NCBI RefSeq assembly: GCF_009936135.1
Contig: NZ_CP047901.1
Location: 563,354 to 627,353 of the forward strand
DNA: 64,000 nt
Source of the DNA: Candidatus Chazhemtobacterium aquaticus
GTDB lineage: Bacteria > Patescibacteriota > Microgenomatia > UBA1400 > Chazhemtobacteraceae
Direction: 5' to 3'
Part shown: positions 5,784 to 64,000 of the stretch, piece after piece
Layout of the letters: each line of letters opens with the position of its first letter
Numbering within the stretch: the stretch's first letter is position 1
Made by a program: the position numbers and the translations under genes
The notes under the pieces: generated by a model
Told to the model about the DNA's origin: nothing
Database searches by the model: none
The model's input: only the letters and a program-made list of their open reading frames with translations

Positions 5784-6493
5784 TATACGCATCTATCCCT
5801 GCGGCTGGCAAGGGTACTAGGCTTCAGCCGCTAGCATTTTCTAAGGAGCTGGCATTAATTGGTGAGAAAACGGTTATCGAATACACACTCGAGAGACTAG
5901 TGCTCGCTGGAGTTACCAGAATTTTCATCACCATAAACTCTGACAAACTCGATATCCCAAGATATCTTTCAGACAAAACTAAATACGGACAATACATTTC
6001 ATACATAGTCAAAGATAGCCATTCACTTCCAGAAAGCGTATTTGCCCCCGCCAAGTTTATTAAATCAAATGATCATCTAGTGTTTGGTCTCCCAGATACC
6101 ATCTGGTATCCAAAAAACTGCTACAAGATATTGATTGACAACATTCGGGGCAATCTTACTCTTGGCTTATTCGATTCTGGGTCACCTGAAAAATTTGACT
6201 CAGTAGTAACTAATTCAAATAATCAGATTAAACAGATTGACGTCAAGATTCCAAATCCAAAAACAAAATGGACTTGGGGGATTGGTGCTATTAACAAGTC
6301 GGCTATTAAGTTCATTGACTCATATTTACAAAAACAAGATCAGCTAGAACCAATTTTTGGTATTGCTGCCAACCAGTATTGTCAGGAAGAAACATGTTAC
6401 GCCATCAAATTCCCAAACAGTTCATATCTTGATATAGGTCGCAAAGAAGACTACCAGAATGCTACCCAGTTCATAAAAAAACATCATGAGTAA
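5780..6493 (+). CDS. Sugar-phosphate nucleotidyltransferase (NTP_transferase family)
   Basis: N-terminal AAGKGTRLQPL matches the G-x-G-T-R-L signature of sugar-1-phosphate nucleotidyltransferases. The start overlaps the flippase stop, suggesting an operon. Confidence 0.7.
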   Translation: MIYASIPAAGKGTRLQPLAFSKELALIGEKTVIEYTLERLVLAGVTRIFITINSDKLDIPRYLSDKTKYGQYISYIVKDSHSLPESVFAPAKFIKSNDHLVFGLPDTIWYPKNCYKILIDNIRGNLTLGLFDSGSPEKFDSVVTNSNNQIKQIDVKIPNPKTKWTWGIGAINKSAIKFIDSYLQKQDQLEPIFGIAANQYCQEETCYAIKFPNSSYLDIGRKEDYQNATQFIKKHHE

Positions 6494-12661: not shown

Positions 12662-12712
12662 AAGCGAATTCTAACATCTTCATCAACTTCCTGTAGTAAA
12701 ATATCCCCATCA

Positions 12713-21169: not shown

Positions 21170-21206
21170 ATCAGGCATATTTTACCACTCAAAAAACTAT
21201 ATTGAT

Positions 21207-22339: not shown

Positions 22340-22920
22340 CAGGAAACCCCGCATGGAATAGCGTCACACGAGAGTAGTTAGCGTATGGAATGCGGGGATG
22401 AATGAGCATATCAGGCTGACCTGATATGCTGACTGCATGAGAAAGAGAAGCCTTAATCACTGTGCCTATCAACACCAGTACCATCTAGTCTGGGGAACAA
22501 AATACAGACGGAAATACATCAAGTCGTATGTCAAGGAAGAGTTGCTGTTAGAGTTACACCAACTGATCAAGAAATATCCCACACTGTATCTTTACGCTGT
22601 CAACACGGGTAGTGATCACATTCATCTACAAATTGAGATTTCACCAGATATATCAGTAGCCAGGGTGGTTCAAAGGATTAAGACATATACCAGCTTTCGA
22701 TTAAAGAAAAAATTTAAGTTCATCAGGAAGATATATCTGGACTCTGGTATCTGGAGTGTGGGATATTTCTCATCAACAGTGGGTTTAAACGAGACTTACC
22801 TTCCAGTTAAACTCGGATACATTTTTTCTTTTCTGACAGCGCGGACATGTCTTAAACACAACTGTTTTAATTATATCAATGTACACTTCGAAAATTAAAT
22901 ATGATTTCGAAGTATAGAAA
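22340..22920 (+). mobile_element. IS200/IS605-family insertion sequence (tnpA only) with subterminal hairpins
   Basis: The tnpA ORF is flanked by imperfect palindromes typical of the family. Left end: CCCCGCAT...ATGCGGGG (22347-22397) and AGCATATCAGG-ctga-CCTGATATGCT (22405-22430). Right end: ACTTCGAAA-11nt-TTTCGAAGT (22885-22913). Confidence 0.6.
22437..22898 (+). CDS. tnpA: IS200-like Y1 (HUH) transposase TnpA
   Basis: YHLVWGTKYRRKYI and the HuH motif SDHIHLQIEI. Catalytic Tyr region SVGYFSSTVG. At 153 aa it has the right size for IS200 TnpA. Confidence 0.85.
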   Translation: MRKRSLNHCAYQHQYHLVWGTKYRRKYIKSYVKEELLLELHQLIKKYPTLYLYAVNTGSDHIHLQIEISPDISVARVVQRIKTYTSFRLKKKFKFIRKIYLDSGIWSVGYFSSTVGLNETYLPVKLGYIFSFLTARTCLKHNCFNYINVHFEN

Positions 22921-23016: not shown

Positions 23017-23055
23017 ATAACCCATATTATATCAACCCTATATATAAAAGTAGGG

Positions 23056-23766: not shown

Positions 23767-23838
23767 AACGCCATTTTAACATCTCAAAAACCCAAGCCTA
23801 GCTCATCACCCTCGGTCTTGGTATAATATCAGCTGTTA

Positions 23839-24133: not shown

Positions 24134-24166
24134 CCGGAAGATAAAGATGATAAAATAATTACACTT

Positions 24167-24284: not shown

Positions 24285-24734
24285 ATGAAGACATGCTCCA
24301 GATGTCACCTTAGTAAGGATTTATCCGAATTCTATTTACGCAAAACCGGCAGGAAAGCAGGGCAATATTACAACCACTGTAAAACGTGTCTCAGAGAGAG
24401 GGGAAAATCTTATTACAGGAAAAACAGAGAGAGGCAGCTCTTCCTATCAAACCAAAGAAGAAAAAAATACGTAATTCTCAAAAAGAAGCTAGTATATAGT
24501 CTCAAAAACAAGCCGTGTAAAGATTGTGGCCAAAGATTTCCTCACTACGTTATGGACTTCGACCATCGCGATGAGACAACCAAGATCGGAAATATCGCCC
24601 ACTTAGTCAGCCAAAACTACTACTCAAAAACAAAACTACTTGCAGAAATCAACAAATGTGACATCGTCTGCGCTAATTGCCATCGCATAAGAACCTACAA
24701 ACACAAAATACGCACCATAAACAAAGTTTATTGA
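24285..24734 (+). CDS. HNH endonuclease with N-terminal zinc-ribbon (homing-endonuclease-like)
   Basis: CSRCH...CKTC Cys pairs at the N-terminus. The HNH core CKDCGQRFPHYVMDFDHRDE...NIAHLVS...EINKCDIVCANCH provides the His-Asn-His triad and Zn-binding Cys residues. Confidence 0.7.
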   Translation: MKTCSRCHLSKDLSEFYLRKTGRKAGQYYNHCKTCLRERGKSYYRKNRERQLFLSNQRRKKYVILKKKLVYSLKNKPCKDCGQRFPHYVMDFDHRDETTKIGNIAHLVSQNYYSKTKLLAEINKCDIVCANCHRIRTYKHKIRTINKVY

Positions 24735-24750
24735 TATAATAATAGAACCT

Positions 24751-25705: not shown

Positions 25706-25735
25706 GAGCCTCAAAATGTTAAAATATCCCAATCT

Positions 25736-29780: not shown

Positions 29781-30185
29781 TTAATCCTCAAGAACCCAGC
29801 TAATACTCGAGGCGATCACTCCGATGGTGATCGAGCCCAGCACATACGACATCAAAGTACTTACCTCAAATACTGGTATCACAAAACCATTACTTTCCCA
29901 ACCTGGAAACACAAAACCAACTATTCCAAAACCACTCACTATTCTGGTTAACAAAAATAGAGTCAAAACATGAGCCACCCAACGAAACAGTCCTAATGTG
30001 ATCAAGTTAATTGGTAGCAAAAACAGCTTGATTAAGGGTTTGACGATCCGGTTAAGCAGCATTAGAGCAATAGCAGCTATTATCAGGGTTTCAAGCCGTC
30101 CATCATAAATAATGCCCGGATATATCAGTACCGATAGATACAGCACCAAGCCGCTTAAGAAAAATCCTCTAATTAAGCCTTTCAT
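29781..30185 (-). CDS. Four-helix membrane protein, phage-holin-4_2/YvlD-like (putative)
   Basis: 134 aa with 4 TM helices. Size and topology match the PF04020-type membrane proteins. Confidence 0.35.
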   Translation of the reverse strand: MKGLIRGFFLSGLVLYLSVLIYPGIIYDGRLETLIIAAIALMLLNRIVKPLIKLFLLPINLITLGLFRWVAHVLTLFLLTRIVSGFGIVGFVFPGWESNGFVIPVFEVSTLMSYVLGSITIGVIASSISWVLED

Positions 30186-30223: not shown

Positions 30224-31552
30224 TTATGATAAACTCCGCCTGTCTCTTACTTGTTTATGATATCCCGTTCCAAATCTATGAGCCTCGTCTCTGATTTGCT
30301 GCAGTAACTGCAAGCCTTTAGATCTTCTTGGCATCTCTATCTCAATAAACTTACCCTCATAGAAAATCACAATCAGCTCTTCCTTTTTAGCCAAACCAAT
30401 CACTGGTACGTCCTTTATCAACTTCAAGGCTGTTGATAGTTGTGGCCTGCCTCCATCAACCAAAATTAAGTCAGGTCGTGGCCAATCAGTTCGCCTAGTT
30501 CTTCGAACAAGCATCTGCTTCATTGCCTCAGTATCGCTATTACTACCATCAAGCTTAAATTTTCGATAGCTACTTTTATCTGCAGTCCCCAAGAAAAAGA
30601 CCACCATCGCTCCCACCGTATCCATTTGTAGAGTAGTGGCCACATCATAACCCTCAATCCGCTCTAAACTAGACTCTATCCCGTAGCTACTCAACATAAC
30701 CTTTAGTTCGCGGATGGCTCGCTCAGGAGTTTGATTATCCTTTAGAAACTCAGCCAATCCGTGCCGAGTCTTGGTGGCCCATTTGACTGCCTCGTACATC
30801 TTCCTAACCTCCTCAGCCTCCTCATATTTTTCATTCTTAGCCAATCTTCGTATCTTCTTTTCTAAGCTAACCAACAAACCACTCGAACTCCCATTTAAGA
30901 ATCTCTTTAAGTATCCGATCTTACTTCGGTACTTTGTCTTACTAACCAATCCCGTGCAGGCGCCATCACACTTGCCAATATGGTAATAGAAACATGCTCT
31001 TTTAACGCCATTGTTAGGTGGATTTTGGCAAAACTTAAAAATATTTCTAGCCACTTTAAGTACCATCTCAGCTTCATAGCGGGTTCTAAATGGACCATAC
31101 ACTGACCTAAAATTCTCTATCTCACCACCTCTGATCAAACTAACCACTGGAAAATCTTCATTACCTACCATGATGTAGGTACTACTCTTGTCATCCTTCG
31201 ACATCGAGTTGTAAAAAGGTTGATGCAGACGGATCAACTTTGCTTCAAGTAGCAAACTCTCGATTTCCGACTCAACCTGATAAAACCTAATCCATTTGGC
31301 CAAATTAACAAACTCCTTTTGTTTACTTCTTGCCTCCTTAGCTTGTTGAAGATGTTGTTTAAGTCTGGACTTAGGATGAACCGATTTACCTATATACAGC
31401 GGTTTACCGGTCTCGTCTTCGAAGCAATAAACGGACGGCTGTGTAGGCACCCGCTGCCAGAATCGTGGCTCCAACTGCTCCGGCCGCCACTTTAACCGAC
31501 GTCCCCCAAGCTTCGTCTTGTTCGACTCTAACCATGATTTCTCGTTGTCCAT
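30224..31552 (-). CDS. uvrC: Excinuclease ABC subunit C (short form lacking the C-terminal HhH domain)
   Basis: GIY-YIG (VYCFEDETGKPLYIGKS...LKQH), a Cys-rich segment (CFYYHIGKCDGAC), and the C-terminal nuclease region DLILVDGGRPQLSTAL...IGLAKKEE...IRDEAHRFGTGYHKQ. The annotated 5' end overlaps the upstream gene by 148 nt, so the true start is probably downstream, possibly non-ATG. Confidence 0.8.
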   Translation of the reverse strand: MDNEKSWLESNKTKLGGRRLKWRPEQLEPRFWQRVPTQPSVYCFEDETGKPLYIGKSVHPKSRLKQHLQQAKEARSKQKEFVNLAKWIRFYQVESEIESLLLEAKLIRLHQPFYNSMSKDDKSSTYIMVGNEDFPVVSLIRGGEIENFRSVYGPFRTRYEAEMVLKVARNIFKFCQNPPNNGVKRACFYYHIGKCDGACTGLVSKTKYRSKIGYLKRFLNGSSSGLLVSLEKKIRRLAKNEKYEEAEEVRKMYEAVKWATKTRHGLAEFLKDNQTPERAIRELKVMLSSYGIESSLERIEGYDVATTLQMDTVGAMVVFFLGTADKSSYRKFKLDGSNSDTEAMKQMLVRRTRRTDWPRPDLILVDGGRPQLSTALKLIKDVPVIGLAKKEELIVIFYEGKFIEIEMPRRSKGLQLLQQIRDEAHRFGTGYHKQVRDRRSLS

Positions 31553-33257
31553 TCTTAATCAATAAATTACTTGGCGCGATTAATCCCTTACCTCGCGCCG
31601 TGTTAACAAGCATTACCCTTTCTCCGTAAGGTGGGATAACCTCCTCACGCACCTCGTCCACCACACCCTCAGGCTCTGATTTTATCACCAGGCTACCTCC
31701 TCCGGCCACCATGCCCTGATTCTTCACCGTTAATTCAATCACTCCTTTCCACCAATTTCGTTTGTATACAGCCTCAAACATCAAGTCCTCACTTGGCATT
31801 ACCACCGGGTCACTGGCAATCACCTTAACATCTTTATTGCTAGTCACCTCCGTCTTATATGCTCCAGCAGGCAAAGGATTCACTGGATCACTACCGTGGA
31901 TTACAAATACAAAGTGGTTCAAGTCCAGTTTATTAAAATAATCGACTCCTCCGGTCGTATCCCCCCAGGTTGGATCAATCTGTACCCACCGCCTTGTCTG
32001 CAAATCATAATACTCAGGCCAAGCATGCAAAATATCCTGGGTCAGACTCAAAGGTCGAAGTTTGTCATTACTAGTGAAAGCATAACCTTCCAGTTCTCTT
32101 GCTGGAATCCCCGCCGCTCTAGCCAATGTCACAAACAAATCCGTGAACTCAGTACAAATAGCCGTCTCAGGGGCATTTAAAGCAGCCAAAGCTCCCACTC
32201 GGCCACCTCCCGTTAACACCTTGTTGTAGTCATAACTTAAATAATCAGTCACGTAGTCATAAACAGACTTAGCTGATCCCAATTTATCAGCCAAGGCTTG
32301 TACCTGAGCATTGTCCACCTGCCAGTAGCCACTACTCGACAAATACGTCTCCCACATATCCTGATTGAGAATAGAGCCATCAGGATTAAAGCTTATCTTC
32401 ACTACTCCCGTTGTACTTACATCAAGTTTCTGACCGGGTAACAACGTGTACTGGGCCAGCCAGTTACCATCCTTATCAATCAATACATTTTCAGGCTCCG
32501 GCCTGATCGACTCATAAACCATTTTTTGGTAATTCGTGTCAGGTGGTATGGCAATCTCTGCTCCTTGTTTTACCGGGCTGTTATTTTCCAAATGGTAGAT
32601 CAGGTTAAAGCGCATATACTGCTCAGTTCCAAACACCGCCGAAATCGCCCTGTTACCCAAAGTCAATGCTTCAAAGCCATAACTATTACTCGTATTTGCC
32701 GCTGGCGGATTGTTCGTTGCTGTATCAGGTTTTGGAGTAATAAAAGCCGGCTCACCAAAAACAGATGGGACAATTAAGGTCACTTTCTGACTGGATATCT
32801 CTTTATCTGCCTCAAGCTGAGGAATGTTCACTTCCCAGATTGAGCCGTTCTTAATCGCAATATCCTGAGTTTCATAGCTTACCGAAAAACGATTTACCTT
32901 ACCCTTGCCCACTACCTTATCAACAAACATAAACCTGATAATTGTTTGATTATCAGTCACCACAATCTCTGGTTCGATCAAGCCAACGGCATCCTTAACT
33001 CTTACATTTCTAATATCAGTAAACCCTACCGACAGTGAGAATCGATCAGCATATACGTTACTTATCTTGTTTTCCAAGGATATATCAAGCACTACCTGAG
33101 TCACCCCATTAAGACCCACCTGATAAATACTGCTATAACTAGTCTCAAACTCAGAGGCGGCCATCAACCTCGGGGCAGACACCAACCACCAGCCCAACAT
33201 TAACACCACCAACAGTAACTTCTTCACACTGATATTTAACCAGCCGCCATGCCTCAC
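31404..33257 (-). CDS. Surface protein with transglutaminase-like cysteine-protease domain, C-terminal TM anchor
   Basis: Signal peptide present. The transglutaminase-core triad context is TAICTEFTDLFVTLARAAGIPARELEGY (Cys), LHAWPEYYD (His) and VQIDPTWG (Asp). C-terminal anchor AVGATILAAGAYTAVRLLLRRRDR. Confidence 0.6.
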   Translation of the reverse strand: MRHGGWLNISVKKLLLVVLMLGWWLVSAPRLMAASEFETSYSSIYQVGLNGVTQVVLDISLENKISNVYADRFSLSVGFTDIRNVRVKDAVGLIEPEIVVTDNQTIIRFMFVDKVVGKGKVNRFSVSYETQDIAIKNGSIWEVNIPQLEADKEISSQKVTLIVPSVFGEPAFITPKPDTATNNPPAANTSNSYGFEALTLGNRAISAVFGTEQYMRFNLIYHLENNSPVKQGAEIAIPPDTNYQKMVYESIRPEPENVLIDKDGNWLAQYTLLPGQKLDVSTTGVVKISFNPDGSILNQDMWETYLSSSGYWQVDNAQVQALADKLGSAKSVYDYVTDYLSYDYNKVLTGGGRVGALAALNAPETAICTEFTDLFVTLARAAGIPARELEGYAFTSNDKLRPLSLTQDILHAWPEYYDLQTRRWVQIDPTWGDTTGGVDYFNKLDLNHFVFVIHGSDPVNPLPAGAYKTEVTSNKDVKVIASDPVVMPSEDLMFEAVYKRNWWKGVIELTVKNQGMVAGGGSLVIKSEPEGVVDEVREEVIPPYGERVMLVNTARGKGLIAPSNLLIKNGQREIMVRVEQDEAWGTSVKVAAGAVGATILAAGAYTAVRLLLRRRDR

Positions 33258-33266
33258 TACAAGCCG

Positions 33267-36176
33267 CTAAATGATCTGTTTTAACTCCTGACCCGTATAC
33301 GATCGCTCACACTCAATGATTTTATTTAAATTACCAGCAACCAATATCTCTCCTCCTTTGTCTCCACCCTCAGGACCCATATCAATTATCCAGTCTGCGT
33401 TTTTAATCATATCTAAGTTGTGTTCAATCACCACCACTGTATTATCCTGCTTCACTAGGCGGTGTAAAACGATTAACAATTTTCTCAAATCCTCAAAATG
33501 CAGTCCTGTGGTTGGTTCATCCAAGACATAAACAGTATGACCCGACCCAGTTTTTGCCAGTTCCGCCGCCAACTTAATCCTTTGCGCCTCACCTCCGCTC
33601 AAGGTTGGTGCTGGTTGACCCAATTTAATATATCCCAGACCCACATCCTGCAACGTCTTAAGCCGTTTACTAATTGCCGGTACTCCCTTAAAGAACTCCA
33701 CCGCATCATCAACCGTCATCTCCAGTACCTCAGCAATATTCTTGCCCCGGTAATCAACCTCTAGAGTCGGCGAGTTATACCTACTCCCCTGACACACCTC
33801 ACACTTAACATATATGTCTGCCATAAACTGCATCTCAATCTTGGTTTGTCCCTCACCTTGACAGGCCTCACATCTACCCCCTTTGACATTAAACGAGAAC
33901 CTGCCCTGATTGTATCCTCGCATCTTTGCCTCAGATGTCATTGCAAACAATGATCTAATGTAATCAAAAGTCTTGGTATATGTAGCCGGATTACTTCTTG
34001 GTGTCCTACCAATCGGACTTTGGTCAATTAAACTAACCCTCTTTACCCTGTCAGGAATCATAATCGATTCATAATTCACCTGCTCTCGCTTATGTCGCTT
34101 GTTTAACTCTCTAGACAGAGCCTCATACAGAGTTTTAACAATTAAAGTAGACTTACCTGAGCCAGAGACTCCTGTTACACACACCATTCGATTCAGCGGT
34201 AGTTCTACATCAACTTGCTTCAAGTTGTGTTCACTCGCTCCCATTAAACGAATCTTCTCCGGATCCATCACTTTACTCTCATTACTCACCTCAATTTTCT
34301 TTTTGTTTGCCAGATACATTCCTGTCAGACTCTTTGTATCCTTCATCATGTTATTAACATCACCCTGATAGGTTATCTCTCCTCCCTGACTCCCAGCTCC
34401 TGGACCAAACTCAACAATCTCATCTGCTGACATCATCATTTCCCGATCATGCTCTACCACAATTAATGTATTACCCAATTTCTGCAGCTCCCGCAGTGTC
34501 CCGATCAATCTCTTGTTATCTCTCTCATGAAGACCAATGGTTGGCTCATCTAATATATACAATATCCCGGTCAATCTAGAGCCAATCTGGGAAGCCAATC
34601 TAATTCGCTGTAACTCTCCACCAGCAAGTGTACCCGCTTCACGAGCCAGAGTCAGATAGTCCAAGCCAACCGCTTCCAAAAACTTTAACCGGGACATAAT
34701 CTCCTCCACAATTGGCCCGGCAATCGTTTTCTCTTTCTCACTTAAACTGCTCATAACCGTCTCCATCCACTCGCGTGCATTCTCAATCGATAAAGCAGTT
34801 ACCTCAGAAATCGAGGCACTCAATATCGTCACCGCCAAAGCCTCCGGTTTTAATCGATATCCATGACACTCAGGACAAATCTCTTTAACCATGTATTTCT
34901 CAAGCTCTGTCTTGACATACTCAGAGCTACTCTCCGTATATCTTCTCTCCAGCTCGGGAATAATGCCGGCAAAACTAGTATGCCAAGTAGTCTCTCTTCC
35001 TTTAGAGTTAATCCCCTTAACCGCGTACTCTCGTTTACCCGTACCGTAAAGCAGTATCTCCCTCTGCTCATCTTTTAGATCTTTGATTGCCGTTTTGCTA
35101 TCAAACCCATTTTCTAAAGCAACCTGACGAATCAACTTAGCCATCCAAGTATTTGTCTCAAACTGGGCAGCCAGTGGAATAATTCCTCCCTCATCTAAAG
35201 TTAAACTTTCAGCCAATAACAACTCTGTCTTGACTACCAGTTTACTACCCAAACCACTACAAACCGGACACGCACCCTCGGGTGCATTAAAGGAGAACAT
35301 CCTCGGCTCAATTTCAGGCATACTCACATTACACTTCGCACAAGCAAACTTCTCGCTAAACAAGTGATCCTCCATCTCCACTGGCGACTCTGGGAAAGAC
35401 AATCCGTTATCGCCAACCACCGACATCACCACCAATCCAGCTGATATCTCTAGAGCTTGTTCAATTGCCTCAAACAATCTATTTTTGGTTTGTTTACCCA
35501 TCTCCTCATTCTTTTCAAAAACAGACTCAGGCTCGATTACGATCCTGTCAACTACTGCCTCAATGTTATGAAAATTGGTTCTGATTAACTCAACCCTGTC
35601 ATCAAGCTTCAAGATTTTTCCATCAACTCGGATTTGAGAGTAACCTTTCTTAGCCAATGTCTTAAACAGCTCCTTAAACTGTCCCTTTTGATGCCTCACC
35701 ACTGGAGCTAAAATAAGTAGCTTAACCCCTTTCTTCGCAGCCATCAGTTCATGTTTCCAAGCCATCCTTAGCATTAACCGGGTAATCTGTTCAGCGTCCA
35801 AACTGGTAATCTCCTCACCACAGTTAGGACAGTGGGGGTGACCTACTCTGGCAAACAACAGTCTTAGATAGTCATAGATCTCTGTCACTGTACCCACAAT
35901 TGATCTTGGATTATTCGACCCTGATTTCTGGTCAATCGAGATAGCAGGGGATAGTCCATCGATTCTGTCCACCTCCGGCTTATCCATCACTCCCAAAAAC
36001 TGTCTGGCGTAGGAGGATAGTGACTCGACATATCGCCTCTGACCTTCGGCATATATGGTGTCATAAGCCATACTCGATTTACCCGAACCAGATAGTCCAG
36101 TAAACACAATCAATTTGTTTTTGGGCAGATCAAGATCAACCCCTTTAAGATTATGTTGTCTAGCTCCTCGCACCAT
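33267..36176 (-). CDS. uvrA: Excinuclease ABC subunit A
   Basis: MVRGARQHNLKGVDLDLP, two ABC cassettes (GLSGSGKSS; VTGVSGSGKST), zinc-finger Cys clusters, and signature LSGGE motifs. The start was trimmed to the Met that aligns with the canonical UvrA N-terminus; the ORF track begins 12 codons upstream at a GTG. Confidence 0.95.
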   Translation of the reverse strand: MVRGARQHNLKGVDLDLPKNKLIVFTGLSGSGKSSMAYDTIYAEGQRRYVESLSSYARQFLGVMDKPEVDRIDGLSPAISIDQKSGSNNPRSIVGTVTEIYDYLRLLFARVGHPHCPNCGEEITSLDAEQITRLMLRMAWKHELMAAKKGVKLLILAPVVRHQKGQFKELFKTLAKKGYSQIRVDGKILKLDDRVELIRTNFHNIEAVVDRIVIEPESVFEKNEEMGKQTKNRLFEAIEQALEISAGLVVMSVVGDNGLSFPESPVEMEDHLFSEKFACAKCNVSMPEIEPRMFSFNAPEGACPVCSGLGSKLVVKTELLLAESLTLDEGGIIPLAAQFETNTWMAKLIRQVALENGFDSKTAIKDLKDEQREILLYGTGKREYAVKGINSKGRETTWHTSFAGIIPELERRYTESSSEYVKTELEKYMVKEICPECHGYRLKPEALAVTILSASISEVTALSIENAREWMETVMSSLSEKEKTIAGPIVEEIMSRLKFLEAVGLDYLTLAREAGTLAGGELQRIRLASQIGSRLTGILYILDEPTIGLHERDNKRLIGTLRELQKLGNTLIVVEHDREMMMSADEIVEFGPGAGSQGGEITYQGDVNNMMKDTKSLTGMYLANKKKIEVSNESKVMDPEKIRLMGASEHNLKQVDVELPLNRMVCVTGVSGSGKSTLIVKTLYEALSRELNKRHKREQVNYESIMIPDRVKRVSLIDQSPIGRTPRSNPATYTKTFDYIRSLFAMTSEAKMRGYNQGRFSFNVKGGRCEACQGEGQTKIEMQFMADIYVKCEVCQGSRYNSPTLEVDYRGKNIAEVLEMTVDDAVEFFKGVPAISKRLKTLQDVGLGYIKLGQPAPTLSGGEAQRIKLAAELAKTGSGHTVYVLDEPTTGLHFEDLRKLLIVLHRLVKQDNTVVVIEHNLDMIKNADWIIDMGPEGGDKGGEILVAGNLNKIIECERSYTGQELKQII

Positions 36177-36220
36177 CAGATGCGTTGCTGGTGATGTATT
36201 CCTCTCTTTCACAACCCTTA

Positions 36221-36244
36221 ATTTTACCAGAAAAATCCCGAAAG
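36221..36244 (-). promoter_or_regulatory. Conserved promoter-proximal motif shared by uvrA and uvrB (extended -10 plus a putative operator)
   Basis: The coding-strand sequence TTTCGGGATTTTTCTGGTAAAAT lies just upstream of uvrA. It contains TGGTAAAAT, an extended -10. A 23/24-identical copy lies upstream of uvrB. Confidence 0.5.
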
Positions 36245-36249
36245 TTTAG

Positions 36250-36744
36250 CTAGTCACTAGACTCAGCAGTACTAGCAAACAGTGCCGTATTAATCCCCAT
36301 CACGTGCTGAACCAATTTAGCTACATCAACACTCTCATCAGCCTCAAGCCGTTCAAAAACTCGATCTATTCCTTGATTTAGTCTATCCTCAACTTGAGCC
36401 AAATCATCGCCCCAACCTAAAGCAGTTACCATCTCATCCCTATCTTGAATCCATCCAGGTTCAAGTTTACCTGCTCCTCGAGTCACGGCCAACAATCTTC
36501 CAAGTAGAGCCCAAGGTGTGTATTCAAGTAACGCCTTCTCTTGAGCTGACAGTTTGTTACTACTTATCACCTTATCCATCGCCATTCTATACTGTCGCAA
36601 GCCTTCTTTCTGTTGCATCATCATTGGTTCAACTGTAAGAATCCGTTCACCCAATACTCCAAGTACCACCTCACTCATCCTCACTGACTCAGGCGTAAAA
36701 CCCATTTCCCTAGTTAAGAAGCGCAAGCCTTCAGTTTGTGCCAT
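36250..36744 (-). CDS. Hypothetical protein (orphan)
   Basis: A 164-aa ORF divergent from the next orphan. No motif recognised. Confidence 0.45.
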   Translation of the reverse strand: MAQTEGLRFLTREMGFTPESVRMSEVVLGVLGERILTVEPMMMQQKEGLRQYRMAMDKVISSNKLSAQEKALLEYTPWALLGRLLAVTRGAGKLEPGWIQDRDEMVTALGWGDDLAQVEDRLNQGIDRVFERLEADESVDVAKLVQHVMGINTALFASTAESSD

Positions 36745-36819: not shown

Positions 36820-37452
36820 ATGTCAGAACGCCCATTTGCTCCTGTTGAAGAAGAACGAGATTACTCGCCACCAACCAACGCTGAGTTTGTCTCAACCCCA
36901 GAGCTACGACAAAAAATAGAACAATGGCGCAAGGATAATCCAGACGCACCAGTTGTCATCGAAATCGGCTCGCGTAGTAATAATAATGATGGCGTCATAC
37001 TTCAAAGTAGCCAGCCTGATGTTAAAGGCGACCCCATACTGGTTATCCACGTAGATCCGCTCAATCAACCAACGGACAGGATTCCTGATGCACCACCCTC
37101 GTCCCATGCTTTTATAGTCCGCGATCGTTTTGATGCCGATATAGGCAGACAACTTAGAGGTCAGGTTGACCTAGCTGTGGTTGTTGGCCTTATTCCCGAT
37201 ATAGATATCGAGAACGAAATCCTTGAAGGCATCAAGAGACTTGCACCTCCATATGTTTATATTTCCTCTGATGCTGATAGTGGTGATCGTCAAGTTACTG
37301 GTTACACCGTTGCGCAAACCAGAAAAAATATTTCTCGTATCCTTGGCAATGAGTACTCCGCCGAAGACCCTATCCTTCCAGCTGATGTCAGACCAAATAG
37401 TAGTATTGTCACACAAGGTCGGTCACTTCGTATGGTTCTTGAGCGCGATTAG
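36820..37452 (+). CDS. Hypothetical protein (orphan, acidic/Pro-rich)
   Basis: A 210-aa ORF. No motif recognised. Confidence 0.45.
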   Translation: MSERPFAPVEEERDYSPPTNAEFVSTPELRQKIEQWRKDNPDAPVVIEIGSRSNNNDGVILQSSQPDVKGDPILVIHVDPLNQPTDRIPDAPPSSHAFIVRDRFDADIGRQLRGQVDLAVVVGLIPDIDIENEILEGIKRLAPPYVYISSDADSGDRQVTGYTVAQTRKNISRILGNEYSAEDPILPADVRPNSSIVTQGRSLRMVLERD

Positions 37453-37456
37453 TTTT

Positions 37457-39538
37457 CTATTCAATTTTTTCAATCAAATCACGCAGGGAAGCTGCCCGCT
37501 CAAACTCCCAGTTCTTAGCCGCCTCGTTCATTAATCTCCTTAGTTTCTTACTCAGTTTAAGCTTGTCACTTGGTGTCATTGCCTCAACATCTACATCATC
37601 AGGACTACTCCAGCCATAATCATCCAGTACATCCATCTTTTTTTTCTTGTTATCTACCTTAATCCTCTTTAAAAGCTTATCTCTCATTGGCTTAATGATT
37701 CCTTTAGGTACGATTTCATGTTTCAAGTTATACCTTTCCTGAATTTTTCTTCTTCTGGTCACCTCATCCATAGCTCGTCTCATTGAATCGGTAATCTTGT
37801 CAGCATAAAGAATCGCCTTACCCTCAACATGTCTAGCTGCTCTACCCATTGTCTGGATAAGTGAGGTTTCTGAGCGTAAAAATCCCTCCTTATCAGCATC
37901 CAAAATCGCCACCAATGACACTTCCGGAAGATCCAGACCCTCTCTAAGTAAGTTGATTCCCACCACAACATCCACCTCACCACTACGCAAATCATCCAAT
38001 ACATCAATCCTATCTAATGTCTCCACATCTGCATGAAGATAATGAACCTTAATTGGACTTTTTAGTTTGTATCCGATTTTTTCCTCTACCCGTTCACTGT
38101 CTTTTATATAATCAGCCAACTCCTCAGCCATTTTCTTCGTCAATGTGGTTGCTAGCACCCGCTCACACTTTTCTTTTCGTTTGACTATCTCTCTTATCAA
38201 ATCACTCACTTGGCCCTCAATTGGTCTCACCTCGATCACCGGTTCAAGCAAACCGGTTGGCCTAATCAGTTGCTCGACGACCTTGCCCCCTGCCAAATTA
38301 ATCTCCCACTCAGCCGGAGTTGCACTTACATAAATAGCCTGTTTAATCTTTCTGGCAAACTCCTCATACTTAAGAGGCCTATTATCTCTAGCTGATGGCA
38401 ATCTAAAACCATACTCTATTAATGTTTCTTTTCTAGCCTCATCTCCTCGATACATACCTTTAATCTGTGGCAGAGTAATGTGACTCTCATCAATTACGGT
38501 CAAAAATTTTTTCTTACCAAAAATCTCAGCATTATGCTGCATGTACTCAATCAAAGTGAAAGGTGCCTCACCAGGCTGTCGGCCATCGAAATACCGAGAA
38601 TAATTTTCAATACCATTCACATACCCCATAGTCATTAACATCTCCAGATCGTAGTTTACTTTCTGTTCCAGTCTATGAGCCTCTAGTATCTTGCCTTGAT
38701 TCTTAAGCTCTTTACTTCGCTTGGCCAAATCTTTCTTTATCTCCTCCACCGCTTTATCCTGACTGTACACATCTGCCAAGAAATGTTTAGCCGGAGATAT
38801 CACTGCCCGTTTCTCTCTTCCTTCACTCTCACCTGTAAGCAGTAGGGGAGTCAGATCAACTGAATCAACCCAGATTAAATCCTTTATCTCCTTCTCACCA
38901 AACACAATTCTTAACACCTCATCTTTATCAGCTGGCCACACCTCAACATACTCACCCCTTACCCTAAAATTTCCCCTAAGCAATTGACCTCTAGTCCGCT
39001 CATACTGCATGTCAACTAACCGTTTCATTACCTCTTCACGTCCAATCAGCTCACCACTAATCAGCTCCAACATATTCAGAGCATAATCCTTTGGCGAACC
39101 CAAATTATATATACATGACACCGAAGCCACCACAATAACATCCGGTCTTGTCAGCAAGTTGGTGGTTGCCGCCAGTCTCAATTTATCTATCTCATCATTA
39201 ACACTCGTCTCCTTTTCAATATAGGTATCAGACTGGGGGATATACGCCTCTGGCTGATAGTAGTCATAATACGACACAAAGTATGACACAGCATTTTCTG
39301 GAAAAAAATCTCTAAATTCCTGGTACAGTTGAGCCGCTAATGTTTTATTGTGGGAAATGATCAAGGTAGGTAGTTTCACTTCCTCAATCACCTTGGCCAG
39401 ACTAAATGTCTTGCCCGAACCCGTCACTCCTAGCAACACCTGACCGCTCTCATTCTGTCTGATTCCTTCCACCAATTTTTTTATAGCTTCTGGTTGGTCT
39501 CCTCCTGGTTCAAATGGTGATTTCAATTTAAAATCCAT
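37457..39538 (-). CDS. uvrB: Excinuclease ABC subunit B
   Basis: N-terminal GDQPEAI, Walker A GVTGSGKTF, DESH, helicase motifs, and a C-terminal UVR domain (KLSKKLRRLMNEAAKNWEFERAASLRDLI). Confidence 0.95.
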   Translation of the reverse strand: MDFKLKSPFEPGGDQPEAIKKLVEGIRQNESGQVLLGVTGSGKTFSLAKVIEEVKLPTLIISHNKTLAAQLYQEFRDFFPENAVSYFVSYYDYYQPEAYIPQSDTYIEKETSVNDEIDKLRLAATTNLLTRPDVIVVASVSCIYNLGSPKDYALNMLELISGELIGREEVMKRLVDMQYERTRGQLLRGNFRVRGEYVEVWPADKDEVLRIVFGEKEIKDLIWVDSVDLTPLLLTGESEGREKRAVISPAKHFLADVYSQDKAVEEIKKDLAKRSKELKNQGKILEAHRLEQKVNYDLEMLMTMGYVNGIENYSRYFDGRQPGEAPFTLIEYMQHNAEIFGKKKFLTVIDESHITLPQIKGMYRGDEARKETLIEYGFRLPSARDNRPLKYEEFARKIKQAIYVSATPAEWEINLAGGKVVEQLIRPTGLLEPVIEVRPIEGQVSDLIREIVKRKEKCERVLATTLTKKMAEELADYIKDSERVEEKIGYKLKSPIKVHYLHADVETLDRIDVLDDLRSGEVDVVVGINLLREGLDLPEVSLVAILDADKEGFLRSETSLIQTMGRAARHVEGKAILYADKITDSMRRAMDEVTRRRKIQERYNLKHEIVPKGIIKPMRDKLLKRIKVDNKKKKMDVLDDYGWSSPDDVDVEAMTPSDKLKLSKKLRRLMNEAAKNWEFERAASLRDLIEKIE

Positions 39539-39546
39539 CAATCTAA

Positions 39547-39571
39547 CATTTTACCAGAAAAATACCCGAAA
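39547..39571 (-). promoter_or_regulatory. uvrB promoter motif (copy of the uvrA motif); -10 sits about 10 nt from the start codon, suggesting a leaderless mRNA
   Basis: The coding strand reads TTTCGGGTATTTTTCTGGTAAAATG, nearly identical to 36221-36244. Confidence 0.5.
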
Positions 39572-39591
39572 TCTTCTACTTGACTTCGGGT
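39564..39591. promoter_or_regulatory. Palindrome ACCCGAA-N14-TTCGGGT in the uvrB-lexA divergent promoter region (candidate operator)
   Basis: It overlaps the lexA -35 (TTGACT 39580-39585; -10 TAAATT 39603-39608, only 7 nt before the ATG) and abuts the uvrB motif. Confidence 0.4.
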
Positions 39592-39614
39592 TTTATTTGT
39601 CATAAATTCTAATC

Positions 39615-40229
39615 ATGGCAGTCACCCTTTACAAGCGACAACGACAAATCGTTGATTTTATCTCCCAATACATTCAAGTTCATGGTTACTCACCCACTCT
39701 TCAAGAAATTGCCGATGCCTTAGGTGTCTCCTCACTAGCTACCGTACACGAACATCTTCAAGCCCTAATCAAGAAAAAAATCATCCGCAAATATGAAGGC
39801 GCTGTCCGAGGTATCGAACTGGTTGACAAAAAGATTGGCCAGGCCTTAAGTACCGTCGAACTTCCCATTCTAGGCTACATAGTCGCCGGTAAACCAATCG
39901 AACCCTATGATGAACCAGACGCTACCTTAAAAGTCTCTCCAGAGATGATCACTGGCAAACGCAAAGCTTTTGTTCTACGTGTTAATGGTGAGAGCATGCG
40001 TGATGATGGTATCTTTGATGGCGATTTTGTAGTCTGCGAAGAAACCAATCAGGCTGATAACGGTGATATAGTGGTAGCTCTTTTGGAAAACGGCTTAGCC
40101 ACTCTTAAAAGATTCTTTAGAGAAAAAACCCGAATTCGACTAGAACCAGCTAATGCTTCAATGAGCCCCATCTACGCCACCAGAGTTCGTATCCAAGGCA
40201 AAGTAGTTGGTGTTATCAGGCGCTTTTAG
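39615..40229 (+). CDS. lexA: LexA repressor (S24 peptidase)
   Basis: N-terminal wHTH (SPTLQEIADALGVSSLATVHEHLQAL). The cleavage region is VAGKPIEP, followed by the Ser/Lys dyad context VNGESMRDDGI...LKRF. Confidence 0.9.
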   Translation: MAVTLYKRQRQIVDFISQYIQVHGYSPTLQEIADALGVSSLATVHEHLQALIKKKIIRKYEGAVRGIELVDKKIGQALSTVELPILGYIVAGKPIEPYDEPDATLKVSPEMITGKRKAFVLRVNGESMRDDGIFDGDFVVCEETNQADNGDIVVALLENGLATLKRFFREKTRIRLEPANASMSPIYATRVRIQGKVVGVIRRF

Positions 40230-54091: not shown

Positions 54092-54769
54092 TCATATTGA
54101 TAGTAACAGTAACTCCATTCTTGTTGCCAAGGGTAAGTTGCTTTTACCAAGCTTGGTTTCCTCCTCCAATCGATATATCTCCGTATGAAACCTTAACAAA
54201 CCCTCCATACCAAAGACATCTGCCTGTTTTTTAAGTTTTCCAGTCAACCACGACGGGCCCCTAAAACTAGTCGGGTCACTTAAAATGCTGATCAGCTGTC
54301 TTGTTTGTCGAAGTAACATAAAGAAAATTAGTTCTGCTGGCTCATTACTCGATAGCTCTTCCCATAAAGGCATAAAAGCTCGCTGACCTCCTGGTACTAC
54401 GCTTTCTAAGAATTTAAAAATCTTACTGTTTACCTTAAACTCTTTTATCTCAGCCTTTACTCCCTTAAGTTTTCTTCCATCCACCGGTTTTGGTTCCCAG
54501 ATAACTACCATCTCCGGACTTTCCTTTTTAAGATACTCAATCACTGCTTTTTTTGACGAGCTTGTCAGACCACTAAACAGCTCCTCAATCACTACCAATC
54601 GCAGATCACCAAACAATCCACCCGACTCAACCGCCTGGATTACCTCACTAAGATCTGCCTTTTTTGCCAACAAGGTCACCACCTCCACCCCCTTTAATCT
54701 TGCCTGCTCCTTATACTTATTTAAGTACTCTCTTGACTCAATCTGGTTATCTCCATGTATTATCTTCAT
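54092..54769 (-). CDS. holA: DNA polymerase III delta-subunit-like protein (short; putative HolA)
   Basis: SGGLFGDLRLVVIEE and ELIFFMLLRQTRQL resemble HolA N-terminal and domain-III segments. Weak, recalled similarity. Confidence 0.35.
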   Translation of the reverse strand: MKIIHGDNQIESREYLNKYKEQARLKGVEVVTLLAKKADLSEVIQAVESGGLFGDLRLVVIEELFSGLTSSSKKAVIEYLKKESPEMVVIWEPKPVDGRKLKGVKAEIKEFKVNSKIFKFLESVVPGGQRAFMPLWEELSSNEPAELIFFMLLRQTRQLISILSDPTSFRGPSWLTGKLKKQADVFGMEGLLRFHTEIYRLEEETKLGKSNLPLATRMELLLLSI

Positions 54770-55146
54770 CTCTTTAGTCTTTTAAACATCATTTCTACGG
54801 TCTGATGGGTTACCTGATGGCGTCTGCCCTTACCAATATGGGGTACCAAGGCTCCTGAAAATGTCTTGGGGATATGCATCAACTCGTGAATAATCACCCG
54901 CCATTGATCATCCTCACTTAAGTGGTCAAAATGCTGGCTTAAAAACTCAATACAGTAATGTGGCTTAACCTCCAAAGCTTCCTGCCAAATTCGAGGCATG
55001 GCGTAAATCCTTGCTCTAGCTCTAGCTGTTGCGCCTGTAGATCTAAAAGCCACTACCTGATCTGGCTTAATATGCTCCATATTAAGCCTTTCCACCACCT
55101 CCCTTATCCTCTCATCAAGATCACGCGCTCTTTCTAACTTCATCAC
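54766..55146 (-). CDS. Small HExxH zinc-metallopeptidase-like protein (SprT/DUF45-like)
   Basis: The HELMH motif lies in a 126-aa protein. Exact family uncertain. Confidence 0.4.
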   Translation of the reverse strand: MMKLERARDLDERIREVVERLNMEHIKPDQVVAFRSTGATARARARIYAMPRIWQEALEVKPHYCIEFLSQHFDHLSEDDQWRVIIHELMHIPKTFSGALVPHIGKGRRHQVTHQTVEMMFKRLKR

Positions 55147-56850: not shown

Positions 56851-57849
56851 CTATTTTACCCTTTTTATCTTCATTCCTAAATGCCGATAGCTTTCCTCGG
56901 TAACCATCCTTCCCCGGCTAGTTCGCTTCAACAAGCCAATCTGCATCAAAAAAGGCTCATACACATCCTTAATCGTCATCACATCCTCGTTTATCAACGC
57001 TGCCAAGGTCTCCACACCAACTGGTCCACCACCATGTTTCTCAATTACTGCCTTAAGCAATTTTCGGTCAATCTCATCCAACCCCAACTCATCTACCTCA
57101 AGTAGTTTCAAGGCCTTCAAAACCATCTCCCGATCTGCCTGTTTTACACCATGTACCTCAACGTAGTCTCTTACTCTTCTAAGTAGCTTTAGAGCCACTC
57201 TAGCCGTCCTTCTTGACCTTTTGGCCACCTCAAGGCATCCTTGATCATCCAATTTAAACTCCAACTTGTTAGCCGCATTGGCAACTATATTTTTAAGCTC
57301 TTCATCATCATAAAAACTTAACCGATGAATCACTCCAAACCGATCTCGTAGTGGAGCCGCCAACAACCCCACTCTGGTAGTGGCTCCTATCAAAGTGAAC
57401 TTAGCCAGTTCCAAACGCAACGACCTTGCCGTTGGACCCTTACCCAAAATTACATCCAGCACATAGTCCTCCATCGCCGGATACAGTGTTTCCTCCACCG
57501 TCTTGTTTAATCTATGAATCTCATCAATAAACAACACATCACCCTCCTGCAAGTTAGACAAAATTGATGCCAGATCTGCCGCTCGTTCAATCGCCGGACC
57601 TGAGGTTACTCTAATACTCACTCCCATCGACTTAGCTACCAAATGAGCCAGTGTTGTCTTACCTAAACCAGGGGGGCCATAAAATAAAATGTGTTCCAAT
57701 GGTTCCTTGCGGTTTTTAGCTGCCTTAATAGCGATATCTAAAGACTGTCTTAGTTTTTCCTGACCCACAAACTCATCCCACGACTCGGCTCGCAGATTAT
57801 TACCTTTCTCTACCTCCTCAGCTGCCACCACCACTTTATCTTCTACCAT
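56851..57849 (-). CDS. ruvB: Holliday junction branch-migration helicase RuvB
   Basis: Walker A GPPGLGKTTLA and DEIHRL, with the RuvB C-terminal winged helix. Confidence 0.95.
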   Translation of the reverse strand: MVEDKVVVAAEEVEKGNNLRAESWDEFVGQEKLRQSLDIAIKAAKNRKEPLEHILFYGPPGLGKTTLAHLVAKSMGVSIRVTSGPAIERAADLASILSNLQEGDVLFIDEIHRLNKTVEETLYPAMEDYVLDVILGKGPTARSLRLELAKFTLIGATTRVGLLAAPLRDRFGVIHRLSFYDDEELKNIVANAANKLEFKLDDQGCLEVAKRSRRTARVALKLLRRVRDYVEVHGVKQADREMVLKALKLLEVDELGLDEIDRKLLKAVIEKHGGGPVGVETLAALINEDVMTIKDVYEPFLMQIGLLKRTSRGRMVTEESYRHLGMKIKRVK

Positions 57850-58408
57850 CTCGCAAAGCCAATCTAATTTGTTCCTCAGCCGATAACCGGCCGTCTATTT
57901 TCTTCAAACTCTCAACTGCTTCCGCCTTAGTTAACCCCAAGGCCACCAGACCTTTCAAAGCGTCAGCTTGATTTGGATAATCCGCTAAATCAAGTTTCTC
58001 ATCCCCGCCCAACTTACTCTTAAGATCAACAATCAGCCTTTGTGCTCCCTTAGTTCCAATGCCGGGTACAGCTGTAAAAAAACTAACATTACCGTTTCTG
58101 ATAGCCTCAACGATCTCACTTTTACTCCCAGACTCCATCACTGTCATAGCCATTTTAGGGCCGATCCCACTTACCGAGATGAGTTTCTCAAAGAGTTGTT
58201 TCTCCTCTTGGTCGGCAAAACCGTACAGGGCCAAGACCTCTTCTCTTACATGAGTGTAAATATCTAAAACAACTTGCTCATCCAAGACCAGTTTGTTGTT
58301 TAATCTTGCATTTACATTAACCTCATAACCCACCCCATTCACCTCAACGATTATCTTACCTGTCTCTTTCCTGATTACCTTACCTTTTAACAATCCAATC
58401 ATCGCCAC
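57836..58408 (-). CDS. ruvA: Holliday junction DNA helicase RuvA
   Basis: MIGLLKGKV and the HhH motifs (VSGIGPKMA, VPGIGTKGAQRLI). Confidence 0.9.
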   Translation of the reverse strand: MAMIGLLKGKVIRKETGKIIVEVNGVGYEVNVNARLNNKLVLDEQVVLDIYTHVREEVLALYGFADQEEKQLFEKLISVSGIGPKMAMTVMESGSKSEIVEAIRNGNVSFFTAVPGIGTKGAQRLIVDLKSKLGGDEKLDLADYPNQADALKGLVALGLTKAEAVESLKKIDGRLSAEEQIRLALRDGRR

Positions 58409-58452
58409 CTATTGTAACCCAATTTACTCATCACAGCTTAAGTCAAGCCTCC

Positions 58453-58938
58453 CTATGCCTTTAATCTGCTATTTACCGATCCGTGTGTCAAAGCCACTGC
58501 TAAGGCATCAGCTGCGTCATCAGGTTTGGGTGTCTCCTTAAGGCCCAAGATTCTAACTACCATTAACTCAACCTGTTTTTTGTCAGCCTTACCATATCCA
58601 GTTACCGCTGACTTCACCTGTAGGGGAGTGTAACTATAAATAGGCAATTTCTTGTGCCTGCCAGCCAACAACACTACACCTCTAGCCTGACCCACACTCA
58701 TAGCCGTCTTGGCATTGGTAGCAAAGAATAAATCCTCGACCGCCACTTCATCCGGCTTGTACTCATCAATCAGCTCACCGATTCGTTTATATATCAATTC
58801 CAGTCTCTCCACCAACTCACTGTTAGCCTTAGTCTCAAAACAGCCATAAGCCACCATCCTCTCCTTCCCACCATTCTTATCCAGCACCCCCCAACCAGTT
58901 CTACCTGTTCCCGGATCAATTCCTAGTATCCTCATCAC
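58453..58938 (-). CDS. ruvC: Crossover junction endodeoxyribonuclease RuvC
   Basis: ILGIDPGTGRTGWGVL and the RNase H-like fold residues. Confidence 0.9.
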   Translation of the reverse strand: MMRILGIDPGTGRTGWGVLDKNGGKERMVAYGCFETKANSELVERLELIYKRIGELIDEYKPDEVAVEDLFFATNAKTAMSVGQARGVVLLAGRHKKLPIYSYTPLQVKSAVTGYGKADKKQVELMVVRILGLKETPKPDDAADALAVALTHGSVNSRLKA

Positions 58939-59020
58939 CTCATTCTAACAAAGAAAAAACATAATATCCCATAGTCAGTATGGCGTTTAATATTAATCAC
59001 TCATCCTGTATTCTCATACC

Positions 59021-62507: not shown

Positions 62508-64000
62508 TTATGAGAGTAGTTTGGCCACTTGTTCCCTTACCTCATCACTAAAATCAACTCCATAAGGCAGATCAATGATCTTAGGGCCTCCTCCGTTTGG
62601 TACCACCACTCTGACGTGATCATCCCCTGGGTTCTCCTTTAACAGCTTACTGATCATCATTAACACCTCCTTATCAGTTCCCCTGGGAATCTCTATTTCC
62701 TTGACCTCCTTTTCTTCCTTGCTTACATCCACATACTCAACCTCATTGATCACTAGATTGATTGTCTCCTCACGGTAATCCACCTTACCAGTCACCAGCA
62801 CCGACTTATCTTCCTCCCACAGTTCCTTAGTCTCTGCATAAAGCTTAGGAAACACCACCCCATCAACCACCGAGGTGTCATCCTCCAACCTGACAAAGGC
62901 CATTAAGTCATTGTTCTTTTTAGTCACCACCTGTCTTACTTTTATAACCATGCCACCCAAGGTGACTGTCTGACCAATGTGATGTTCTGGATCAAGCTGA
63001 TTAATCCGATGAGTCACTCTCTGAGCCACTCTAGCCATGATGCTCTTTACCGGGTTATCACTCAAGTAAAAACCCAATAGTTCCTTCTCAAACTTAAGCT
63101 TATCTCGCAGTGGCCACTCGGCTACCTCAGGTAAGCTGTCTGCCAACCTCATTGGATCACTCTCTGTCTCAATTTGCCCAAACAAACTGTCCTGCCCCTC
63201 ACTTTTCTTCTTCTGCATACTAGCTGCTTTGTTGCGGATCTCATCTACACCGGCAATCAAAGCTGCTCGGTTACCAAACGCATCAAAAGCACCCGCTTTA
63301 ATCAAACTCTCAATCACTTTTTTATTTACTTTCCTGGCGTCCACCCGGCTGCAGAAATCAGCCAAACTAGTGAACTTAAGCTTATCTCTCTCCTCAAGAA
63401 TCGCTCCCACAGCTGCTTCACCCACATTCTTAATCGCTCCCAACCCAAATCTGATCACCTGCTCGCCATCCTGTTCCACAATCGTAAATCCGGTTAAGGA
63501 TTCGTTAATATCAGGAGCCAGAATAGTGATGCCCATCCGATCACACTCAGCTATTGCCTCCACCAGCTTATCTGTATTACCAGCCTCTGCCGTTAACAAG
63601 GCAGTCATGTACTCAACTGGATAGTTAGCTTTCAAGTAAGCCGTCCAGTAACTAACCATTCCATACGAAGCAGCGTGAGAGTTGTGTACCACCACATCAT
63701 TGGCCAAAAAGTTATGCTCACCTGTTAAGGTTAGGTCGTAAGTCATTTCCTTTCCCTGTTTCTCTACCCCCACCACCTCATCCCAGAAAACATCCGCCTC
63801 TATTAGCCTTCTTAAGGTTTCGGATTCCAACACCTCATTAATTTTGGTTAAAACCTCCCTGGTATATCCGCGTTTTCTCCTATCATCAGAAAACAATCTC
63901 TTTGACAATCCAGTTTGAGAAACCATCTCCTCTACACCAAAACCCTTTTCTTTCATCTCCTCTCGAATTAACCTAAGCACTCCAATCGGTATGGTATCTA
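62508..64000 (-). CDS. dnaE: DNA polymerase III alpha subunit (3' portion; continues beyond the window) containing the C-terminal end of an intein
   Basis: The C-extein is HAASYGMVSYWTAYLKANYPVEYMTALLTAE..., which is the DnaE region after the FNKSH motif. It is immediately preceded by intein block G, MTYDLTLTGEHNFLANDVVVHN|S. The frame stays open to the window edge. Confidence 0.85.
   Translation of the reverse strand, partial: DTIPIGVLRLIREEMKEKGFGVEEMVSQTGLSKRLFSDDRRKRGYTREVLTKINEVLESETLRRLIEADVFWDEVVGVEKQGKEMTYDLTLTGEHNFLANDVVVHNSHAASYGMVSYWTAYLKANYPVEYMTALLTAEAGNTDKLVEAIAECDRMGITILAPDINESLTGFTIVEQDGEQVIRFGLGAIKNVGEAAVGAILEERDKLKFTSLADFCSRVDARKVNKKVIESLIKAGAFDAFGNRAALIAGVDEIRNKAASMQKKKSEGQDSLFGQIETESDPMRLADSLPEVAEWPLRDKLKFEKELLGFYLSDNPVKSIMARVAQRVTHRINQLDPEHHIGQTVTLGGMVIKVRQVVTKKNNDLMAFVRLEDDTSVVDGVVFPKLYAETKELWEEDKSVLVTGKVDYREETINLVINEVEYVDVSKEEKEVKEIEIPRGTDKEVLMMISKLLKENPGDDHVRVVVPNGGGPKIIDLPYGVDFSDEVREQVAKLLS
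63681..64000 (-). other. Intein (C-terminal part; splice junction HN|S at about 63681/63680)
   Basis: The intein C-terminal motif ...YDLTLTGEHNFLANDVVVHN is followed by extein Ser. Upstream intein sequence (…IPIGVLRLIREEMKEKGFG…) continues past position 64000. Confidence 0.7.

Follow-up and report, generated by a model that had tools for sequence, protein, structure and literature searches.

The window, by which we mean the whole 64-kb stretch of DNA that was analysed, carries uvrA, uvrB and uvrC together with lexA and ruvCAB (Table 1). On the minus strand, the segment from 30224 to 36212 is contiguous: uvrA is followed after a gap of 9 nt by a transglutaminase-like gene, which in turn overlaps uvrC. 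It is possible that these three genes are co-transcribed, and their contiguity suggests that uvrC may be co-regulated through the operator predicted below for uvrA. An initial inspection of the letters and open reading frames (the sequence-only reading) had placed lexA next to uvrB, and Pfam assignments confirmed lexA on the plus strand, divergent from uvrB. Between uvrA and uvrB lie the ORFs 36250-36744 (minus) and 36820-37452 (plus), neither of which matched a Pfam family above threshold. The 210-aa ORF of the two has a homologue at the same position in L001, one of the related loci described below. When the LexA protein was aligned to solved LexA structures, the Ala91-Gly92 cleavage site, Ser127 and Lys165 could be assigned, and all of these are invariant in our LexA alignment. 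By these features it is a canonical LexA, with a cleavage site and a Ser/Lys dyad. Its nearest relatives are the LexAs of Candidatus Collierbacteria and of other Microgenomates/Patescibacteria.

Table 1. Genes, promoter boxes and predicted sites in the window, and uvrB promoters of related loci.
Feature	Position	Strand	Description
uvrC	30224-31552	-	Pfam UvrC_RNaseH_dom, GIY-YIG
transglutaminase-like gene	31404-33257	-	Pfam Transglut_core
uvrA	33267-36212	-	Pfam UvrA_inter, UvrA_DNA-bind, ABC_tran
motif copy, uvrA side	36221-36243	-	TTTCGGGATTTTTCTGGTAAAAT
extended -10 of uvrA	36221-36229	-	TGGTAAAAT; promoter type TGnTAnAAT, as found genome-wide
predicted LexA operator of uvrA	36227-36242	-	TTCGGGATTTTTCTGG; TTCGG-N6-TCTGG direct repeat; 17.3 bits, rank 3 in the window
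uvrB	37457-39541	-	Pfam UvrB, UvrB_inter, Helicase_C, UVR
motif copy, uvrB side	39548-39571	-	TTTCGGGTATTTTTCTGGTAAAAT
extended -10 of uvrB	39548-39556	-	TGGTAAAAT; TGnTAnAAT-type box
predicted LexA operator of uvrB	39555-39570	-	TTCGGGTATTTTTCTG; 18.3 bits, rank 2 in the window
lexA promoter (promoter scan)	39580-39608	+	-35 TTGACT 39580-39585, 17-nt spacer, -10 TAAATT 39603-39608
predicted LexA operator of lexA	39585-39600	+	TTCGGGTTTTATTTGT; fills the promoter spacer; 19.3 bits, best in the window
lexA	39615-40229	+	Pfam LexA_DNA_bind, Peptidase_S24
ruvCAB	56851-58938		promoter with TGnTAnAAT box, without the element
TGnTAnAAT boxes, examples	21179-21187, 23026-23034, 23819-23827, 24148-24156, 24732-24740, 25717-25725, 58942-58950, 12668-12676		
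uvrB promoter, L001			TTTCGGGTATTTTCTGGTAAAAT
uvrB promoter, L081			CTTCGGGATTTTTTTGGTACAAT
uvrB promoter, L082			TTTCGCCTAATCTTTGGTAAAAT
uvrB promoter, L003			TTTCGGCAAACCTTCGTCTTCTGCTAAAAT
uvrB promoter, L088			four 11-nt units in tandem

The sequence-only reading had described a near-identical motif upstream of uvrA and uvrB, and both copies were found as described, their sole difference being one additional T after GGG in one of them. The interval it had given, 36213-36262, does hold the uvrA copy and a near-palindrome, but the uvrB copy lies outside it. With up to three mismatches allowed, the 64-kb window yielded no further match beyond these two copies, and 100 dinucleotide-preserving shuffles of the window yielded none. 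The sequences flanking the two copies bear no relation to each other, either upstream (gctaaac versus gtagaaga) or downstream (taagggtt versus gttagatt). The likeness thus ends sharply at the motif edges, indicating that this is not a duplicated segment. The near-palindrome, CTAGTCACTAG, is present at 36250-36260. However, it overlaps the stop codon of the ORF 36250-36744, and palindromes of this form number 59 in the window; we therefore attribute it to chance and regard it as irrelevant to the operator.

Both copies contain the extended -10 box TGGTAAAAT, as had been noted, and this part of the motif is generic because it represents the ordinary promoter type of the genome. The box is also present at three other promoters in the window, and its general form TGnTAnAAT (TGNTANAAT) occurs 21 times against 12.6 expected, a count reached by 1 of 100 shuffles. 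Seven of the 21 boxes are located 9-11 nt before tRNA genes, while several others stand 6-9 nt before start codons: those of ruvC, of a gene starting at 12661, of a gene at 43419, and of uvrA and uvrB. No recognisable -35 was found at these extended -10 promoters in the window. Start codons at this distance imply widespread leaderless mRNAs, and judging from it the transcripts of TGnTAnAAT promoters are probably leaderless. For uvrA, the GTG start at 36212 is 8 nt downstream of the -10, and the N-terminus (...SPATHL) is shared with orthologues. For uvrB, the start (ATG 39538 or TTG 39541) is 6-9 nt downstream of the -10; its orthologues start with M-D/K-F-K-L, 6-7 nt past their own -10. The tRNA genes of the window include 14 between 20900 and 26000, in a cluster that is broken by an IS200-like (Y1_Tnp) transposase gene at 22437-22898.

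Since TGGTAAAAT is a generic extended -10, the whole motif might be taken for a mere promoter feature, or for a recently copied promoter, in either case without regulatory meaning. We consider this very improbable. The upstream part TTTCGGG(T)ATTTTTC is present at none of the 19 other TGnTAnAAT boxes in the window, that of ruvCAB included, and the same holds for the pattern TTCGGG...TYTGG. Occurrence before many unrelated genes, the outcome that the sequence-only reading had itself named as speaking against an operator, is thus not what the window contains. The unrelated flanks argue against recent copying, and the element is kept at orthologous SOS promoters even where the LexA of the genome is only 53-79% identical to the one studied here. 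The proposal that the 14 nt upstream of the -10 exceed the needs of a generic promoter is correct in so far as TTCGGG...TYTGG is non-generic, but the predicted operator is not confined to that stretch and extends into the TGG of the extended -10. A search at ruvAB had also been recommended; the ruvCAB promoter lacks the element and falls outside the set.

LexA-based scans of genome and metagenome contigs gave about 45 Patescibacterial loci, in which lexA commonly adjoins uvrB and uvrA. One of them, L100, is a contig of the same organism with identical sites, and the relatives among the loci have LexAs that are 53-91% identical. De novo motif discovery by expectation maximization (EM) was performed on 64 non-redundant lexA, uvrB and uvrA upstream regions from the other Patescibacterial loci, with the window and L100 excluded. 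The motif converged on TTCGGGTATTTTTTGG, which has the form TTYGG-N6-TTYGG, a direct repeat with a period of 11 bp. The information content of the 16-nt matrix is concentrated at positions 1-5 (TTYGG) and 12-16 (T..GG), and the self-similarity of its columns is maximal at a shift of 11 (0.62 versus about 0.26). This peak indicates a direct repeat with a period of one helical turn, a two-part arrangement suited to a dimer. When both strands of the 64-kb window were scanned with the matrix, the top three matches were those at lexA, uvrB and uvrA. The next-best match scored 11.6 bits (background mean -25.8, sd 9.5), and every other promoter in the window, that of ruvCAB included, was without a strong site. 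All the non-redundant Patescibacterial lexA upstream regions examined score at least 11.3 bits, whereas among random 95-nt segments 11 bits are reached by 1.45%.

The operator predicted for uvrB is kept in L001, L081, L082, L003 and L088, and a uvrB site is found in L095 too. At uvrA, the element is present in the promoters of L087, L111, L010 and L099. Matrix scoring gave no convincing site at, for example, uvrA of L003 and L005 or uvrB of L002, L006 and L010. The regulon is thus not uniform, a point against the LexA reading, as some orthologous uvrA and uvrB promoters do not carry a convincing site. In L087, a gene for a 185-aa protein lies between lexA and uvrB (5350-5907, minus strand), and its promoter contains TTTCGGCATATCTTCGCCTAAT; L111 has an equivalent near 5940. 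No Pfam family above threshold was found for the L087 protein, and the gene is a candidate for an extra SOS gene in those genomes. We also considered whether the 164-aa ORF upstream of uvrA in the window (36250-36744) could be its counterpart, and rejected this, as the two have no similarity.

Upstream of lexA, where a motif search had been recommended, there is a third, diverged copy of the uvrA/uvrB element, which the sequence-only reading had missed. It is equally far from the -10, and it lies in the spacer of a promoter with both a -35 and a -10. The ATG of lexA at 39615 is only 6 nt past the -10, implying that the lexA transcript is leaderless or nearly so. Across the loci, the TTGAC -35 keeps its place directly before the TTYGGG half-site, and the lexA promoters share TTGAC followed, after 0-3 nt, by TTYGGGTATTnTTTGG. 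LexA autoregulation is classically recognised by a motif copy in the promoter of lexA itself. Here, a predicted site is found inside the lexA promoter, with equivalents at lexA of the relatives.

Comparative genomics thus supports the suggestion, already made in the sequence-only reading, of a shared operator that might be the LexA box of this lineage. In our assessment, this Microgenomates/Collierbacteria-like bacterium very probably has in the motif its LexA operator (SOS box), joined into one element with the promoter under its control. We tie it to LexA because it is always found at the lexA promoter, occupies repressor-like positions and co-varies with the LexA recognition helix. The positions, namely the promoter spacer, the extended -10 or a place immediately past the -10, are ones typical of repressor sites. 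Two features of this genome count against the LexA reading. The operator halves are unequal, TTCGG as against TCTGG or TTCTG, and the uvrA and uvrB copies differ by a 1-nt indel that moves the register of the second half, which in the best matrix register reads TCTGG at uvrA and TTCTG at uvrB. At both genes the second half also coincides with the extended -10 (at uvrA, the TGG of the box overlaps the 3' half of the predicted operator), so that in this genome alone the roles of half-site and promoter are inseparable. The relatives are informative in this respect. Eight loci (L005, L006, L008, L009, L010, L093, L096 and L097) have the repeat, for example TTCGGGAAACGTACGCCC, on the downstream side of the -10, which indicates that the second half genuinely belongs to the site and is more than a promoter box.

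Across phyla, the type of motif varies together with the LexA recognition helix. The helix of this LexA, SLATVHEHL, is identical in Gemmatimonadetes LexAs, which are 46-48% identical to it overall. Among the Gemmatimonadetes, L015, L016, L018 and L109 have this direct repeat in two tandem copies, CTTCGGGCAATGTTCGGATA and CTTCGGGTACTGTTCGGTAG, about 80-110 nt upstream of lexA. That these bacteria share both repeat and helix suggests a specificity class common across phyla. LexAs of Limnocylindria and of the Firmicutes type have a different helix and the palindrome CGAACATGCGTTCG; those of Limnocylindria, about 44-47% identical, are the nearest palindrome-using LexAs in our search. A distant Patescibacterial clade (L014 and L103-L106) has LexAs about 48-50% identical and yet another helix, and its loci contain the palindrome TATACGAAATATCGTATA between -35 and start, with the half-site TTTCGTAT inverted.

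The position of the element at uvrA and uvrB invites comparison with the mycobacterial RecA-NDp/PafBC system, in which an element of damage genes is likewise found just upstream of a -10, with no -35 and with leaderless transcripts. The RecA-NDp consensus at mycobacterial PafBC promoters is tTGTCRgtg-N8-TAnnnT. By analogy, the motif could be the site of a different damage regulator, for instance a PafBC-like activator that replaces the missing -35. The uvrA and uvrB promoters do lack a -35, the element is directly upstream of the -10, where an activator element would be, and its tie to LexA rests on sequence comparison. However, a WYL-domain protein acts as an activator at the RecA-NDp element, whereas our element is placed as one would expect of a repressor site, both at lexA and in the leaders of relatives: at lexA it is inside the spacer of a complete -35/-10 promoter, and in several relatives it is downstream of the -10. 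Moreover, the co-variation with the LexA recognition helix would be difficult to reconcile with another regulator, the annotated genes of the window yielded no WYL/PafBC-like or other candidate regulator, and the element does not match the RecA-NDp consensus. We therefore regard an activator of this kind as unlikely.

The uvrB copy could also be read as part of a structure. A terminator scan flags a hairpin at 39564-39591 (minus strand), composed of ACCCGAAGTC-N8-GATTTCGGGT with a 10-bp stem and followed by ATTTTT, and its predicted RNA fold has an energy of -15.4 kcal/mol (z = -3.7). The uvrB copy would then be the 3' arm and T-tract of an intrinsic terminator or of another RNA or DNA structure. 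The hairpin is made by two inverted TTCGGGT elements together with the lexA -35 (GTCAA). On neither strand does a gene end upstream of it, a complementary arm is lacking at the uvrA copy, and the spacing is not conserved, since the two inverted TTCGGG elements of L081 are 46 nt apart, compared to 14 here. For these reasons the hairpin is probably incidental, a by-product of two divergent operators and the lexA -35, and a structural role of the motif seems highly unlikely.

We next compared the predicted LexA operator to known LexA boxes. A LexA-binding motif of Patescibacteria is credited to an earlier study (Sanchez-Osuna et al. 2017, Environ Microbiol 19:3465; cited in PMC7739468 and PMC8565304). 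In the passages that refer to it, PMC7739468 places this motif among direct-repeat motifs and PMC8565304 counts it among 17 distinct LexA motifs reported. As far as these descriptions go, superphylum, regulator and direct-repeat arrangement are the same as here. Compared in this way, through the direct-repeat description in the citing papers, TTYGG-N6-TTYGG is probably the same as the 2017 consensus, and the sites of this genome are presumably absent from the 2017 site list. The sharing of the motif across phyla and the fusion of operator and extended -10 would be new if the 2017 paper describes neither.

The alphaproteobacterial box, GTTC-N7-GTTC, resembles the present site in being an 11-bp direct repeat with a TTC core, bound by a canonical LexA and involved in lexA autoregulation. 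It differs in that here T or C, not G, precedes TTC, and in that the conserved bases extend 3' (TTYGG) and not 5'; in addition, the hosts are phylogenetically unrelated. The half-sites of this genome, TTTCG or CTTCG and TTCTG or TCTGG, do not have GTTC in both halves. The sole match to GTTC-N7-GTTC in the window, at 11266, is unrelated, and the three promoters are without it. With the Gram-positive (Cheo) box, CGAAC-N4-GTTCG, the half-site core TTCG is held in common. That box, however, is an inverted repeat with 4-nt spacing, while our halves point in the same direction with an 11-bp period, and the recognition helix differs from that of palindrome-using LexAs. By its sequence, the site belongs to neither the alphaproteobacterial nor the Gram-positive class. 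No GAAC-N4-GTTC and no cyanobacterial box was found at the lexA, uvrA and uvrB promoters, and the window contains no match to the E. coli-type CTGT-N8-ACAG.

We propose the following model for regulation by LexA at this locus. The operator would consist of two half-sites of about 5 nt in direct repeat, here TTCGGG(T)ATTTTTCTGG, and one LexA dimer would bind per direct repeat. At uvrA and uvrB, which have no -35, it would span about -29 to -13 from the predicted transcription start, its 3' half overlapping the TG of the extended -10, and at lexA it would occupy the 17-nt spacer between TTGACT and TAAATT. Bound LexA would in each case shut out RNA polymerase by occlusion. The near-identity of the uvrA and uvrB copies could then be explained by two overlapping constraints, that of the operator and that of the promoter, which would jointly cover almost all of the 23-24 positions; the single-T indel would be taken up by the T-run. 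Upon DNA damage, RecA-stimulated self-cleavage of LexA would release the uvrA, uvrB and lexA promoters; the transglutaminase-like gene and uvrC, which lie downstream of uvrA, may be released along with it. Release would lead to more nucleotide-excision repair, and the system would be reset through lexA autoregulation. The other near-universal SOS gene besides lexA is recA, and tblastn with an E. coli RecA query found none in the window or in any fetched Patescibacterial locus.

Most likely, the SOS response is arranged here in an ordinary way that earlier work has already reported in Patescibacteria, and current understanding is left unchanged. The value of the finding is that an uncultured lineage of the Candidate Phyla Radiation now has a concrete, testable operator predicted for its SOS response, and that the locus shows how an operator may be built into -35-less, leaderless promoters; this should be useful for annotation and for studies of the evolution of LexA specificity. 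The only targets detected within the 64 kb are nucleotide-excision repair genes and lexA itself. The regulon described by Sanchez-Osuna, Barbe and Erill in 2017 is reportedly centred on repair genes. It is tempting to speculate further, although we regard this as rather doubtful, that TTCGG-N6-TTCGG and the helix SLATVHEHL constitute one class in Microgenomates and Gemmatimonadetes, which arose from the Gram-positive palindrome by the flip of a half-site. In this scenario, the leaderless promoters of the present lineage, which have no -35, would have the 3' half-site fused with the TGG of their extended -10, and LexA and sigma factor would compete for the same bases.

Some further features of the window may be mentioned. 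Phage-associated families are present amid housekeeping genes at 29781-30185 and 54766-55146, namely the holin-like Phage_holin_4_2 and PhageMetallopep. The ORF 62508-63980 (minus strand) has an intein splicing domain ahead of HHH_6 and OB-fold domains, the latter being typical of the C-terminal portion of DNA polymerase III alpha. It is possibly a dnaE gene with an intein, extending in the direction of the window edge. Finally, the GC skew is strongly negative throughout the window (-0.15 to -0.37), irrespective of gene orientation, and a similar strand disparity is reported, according to the title of the publication, for a complete Microgenomates genome (PMC7143001).
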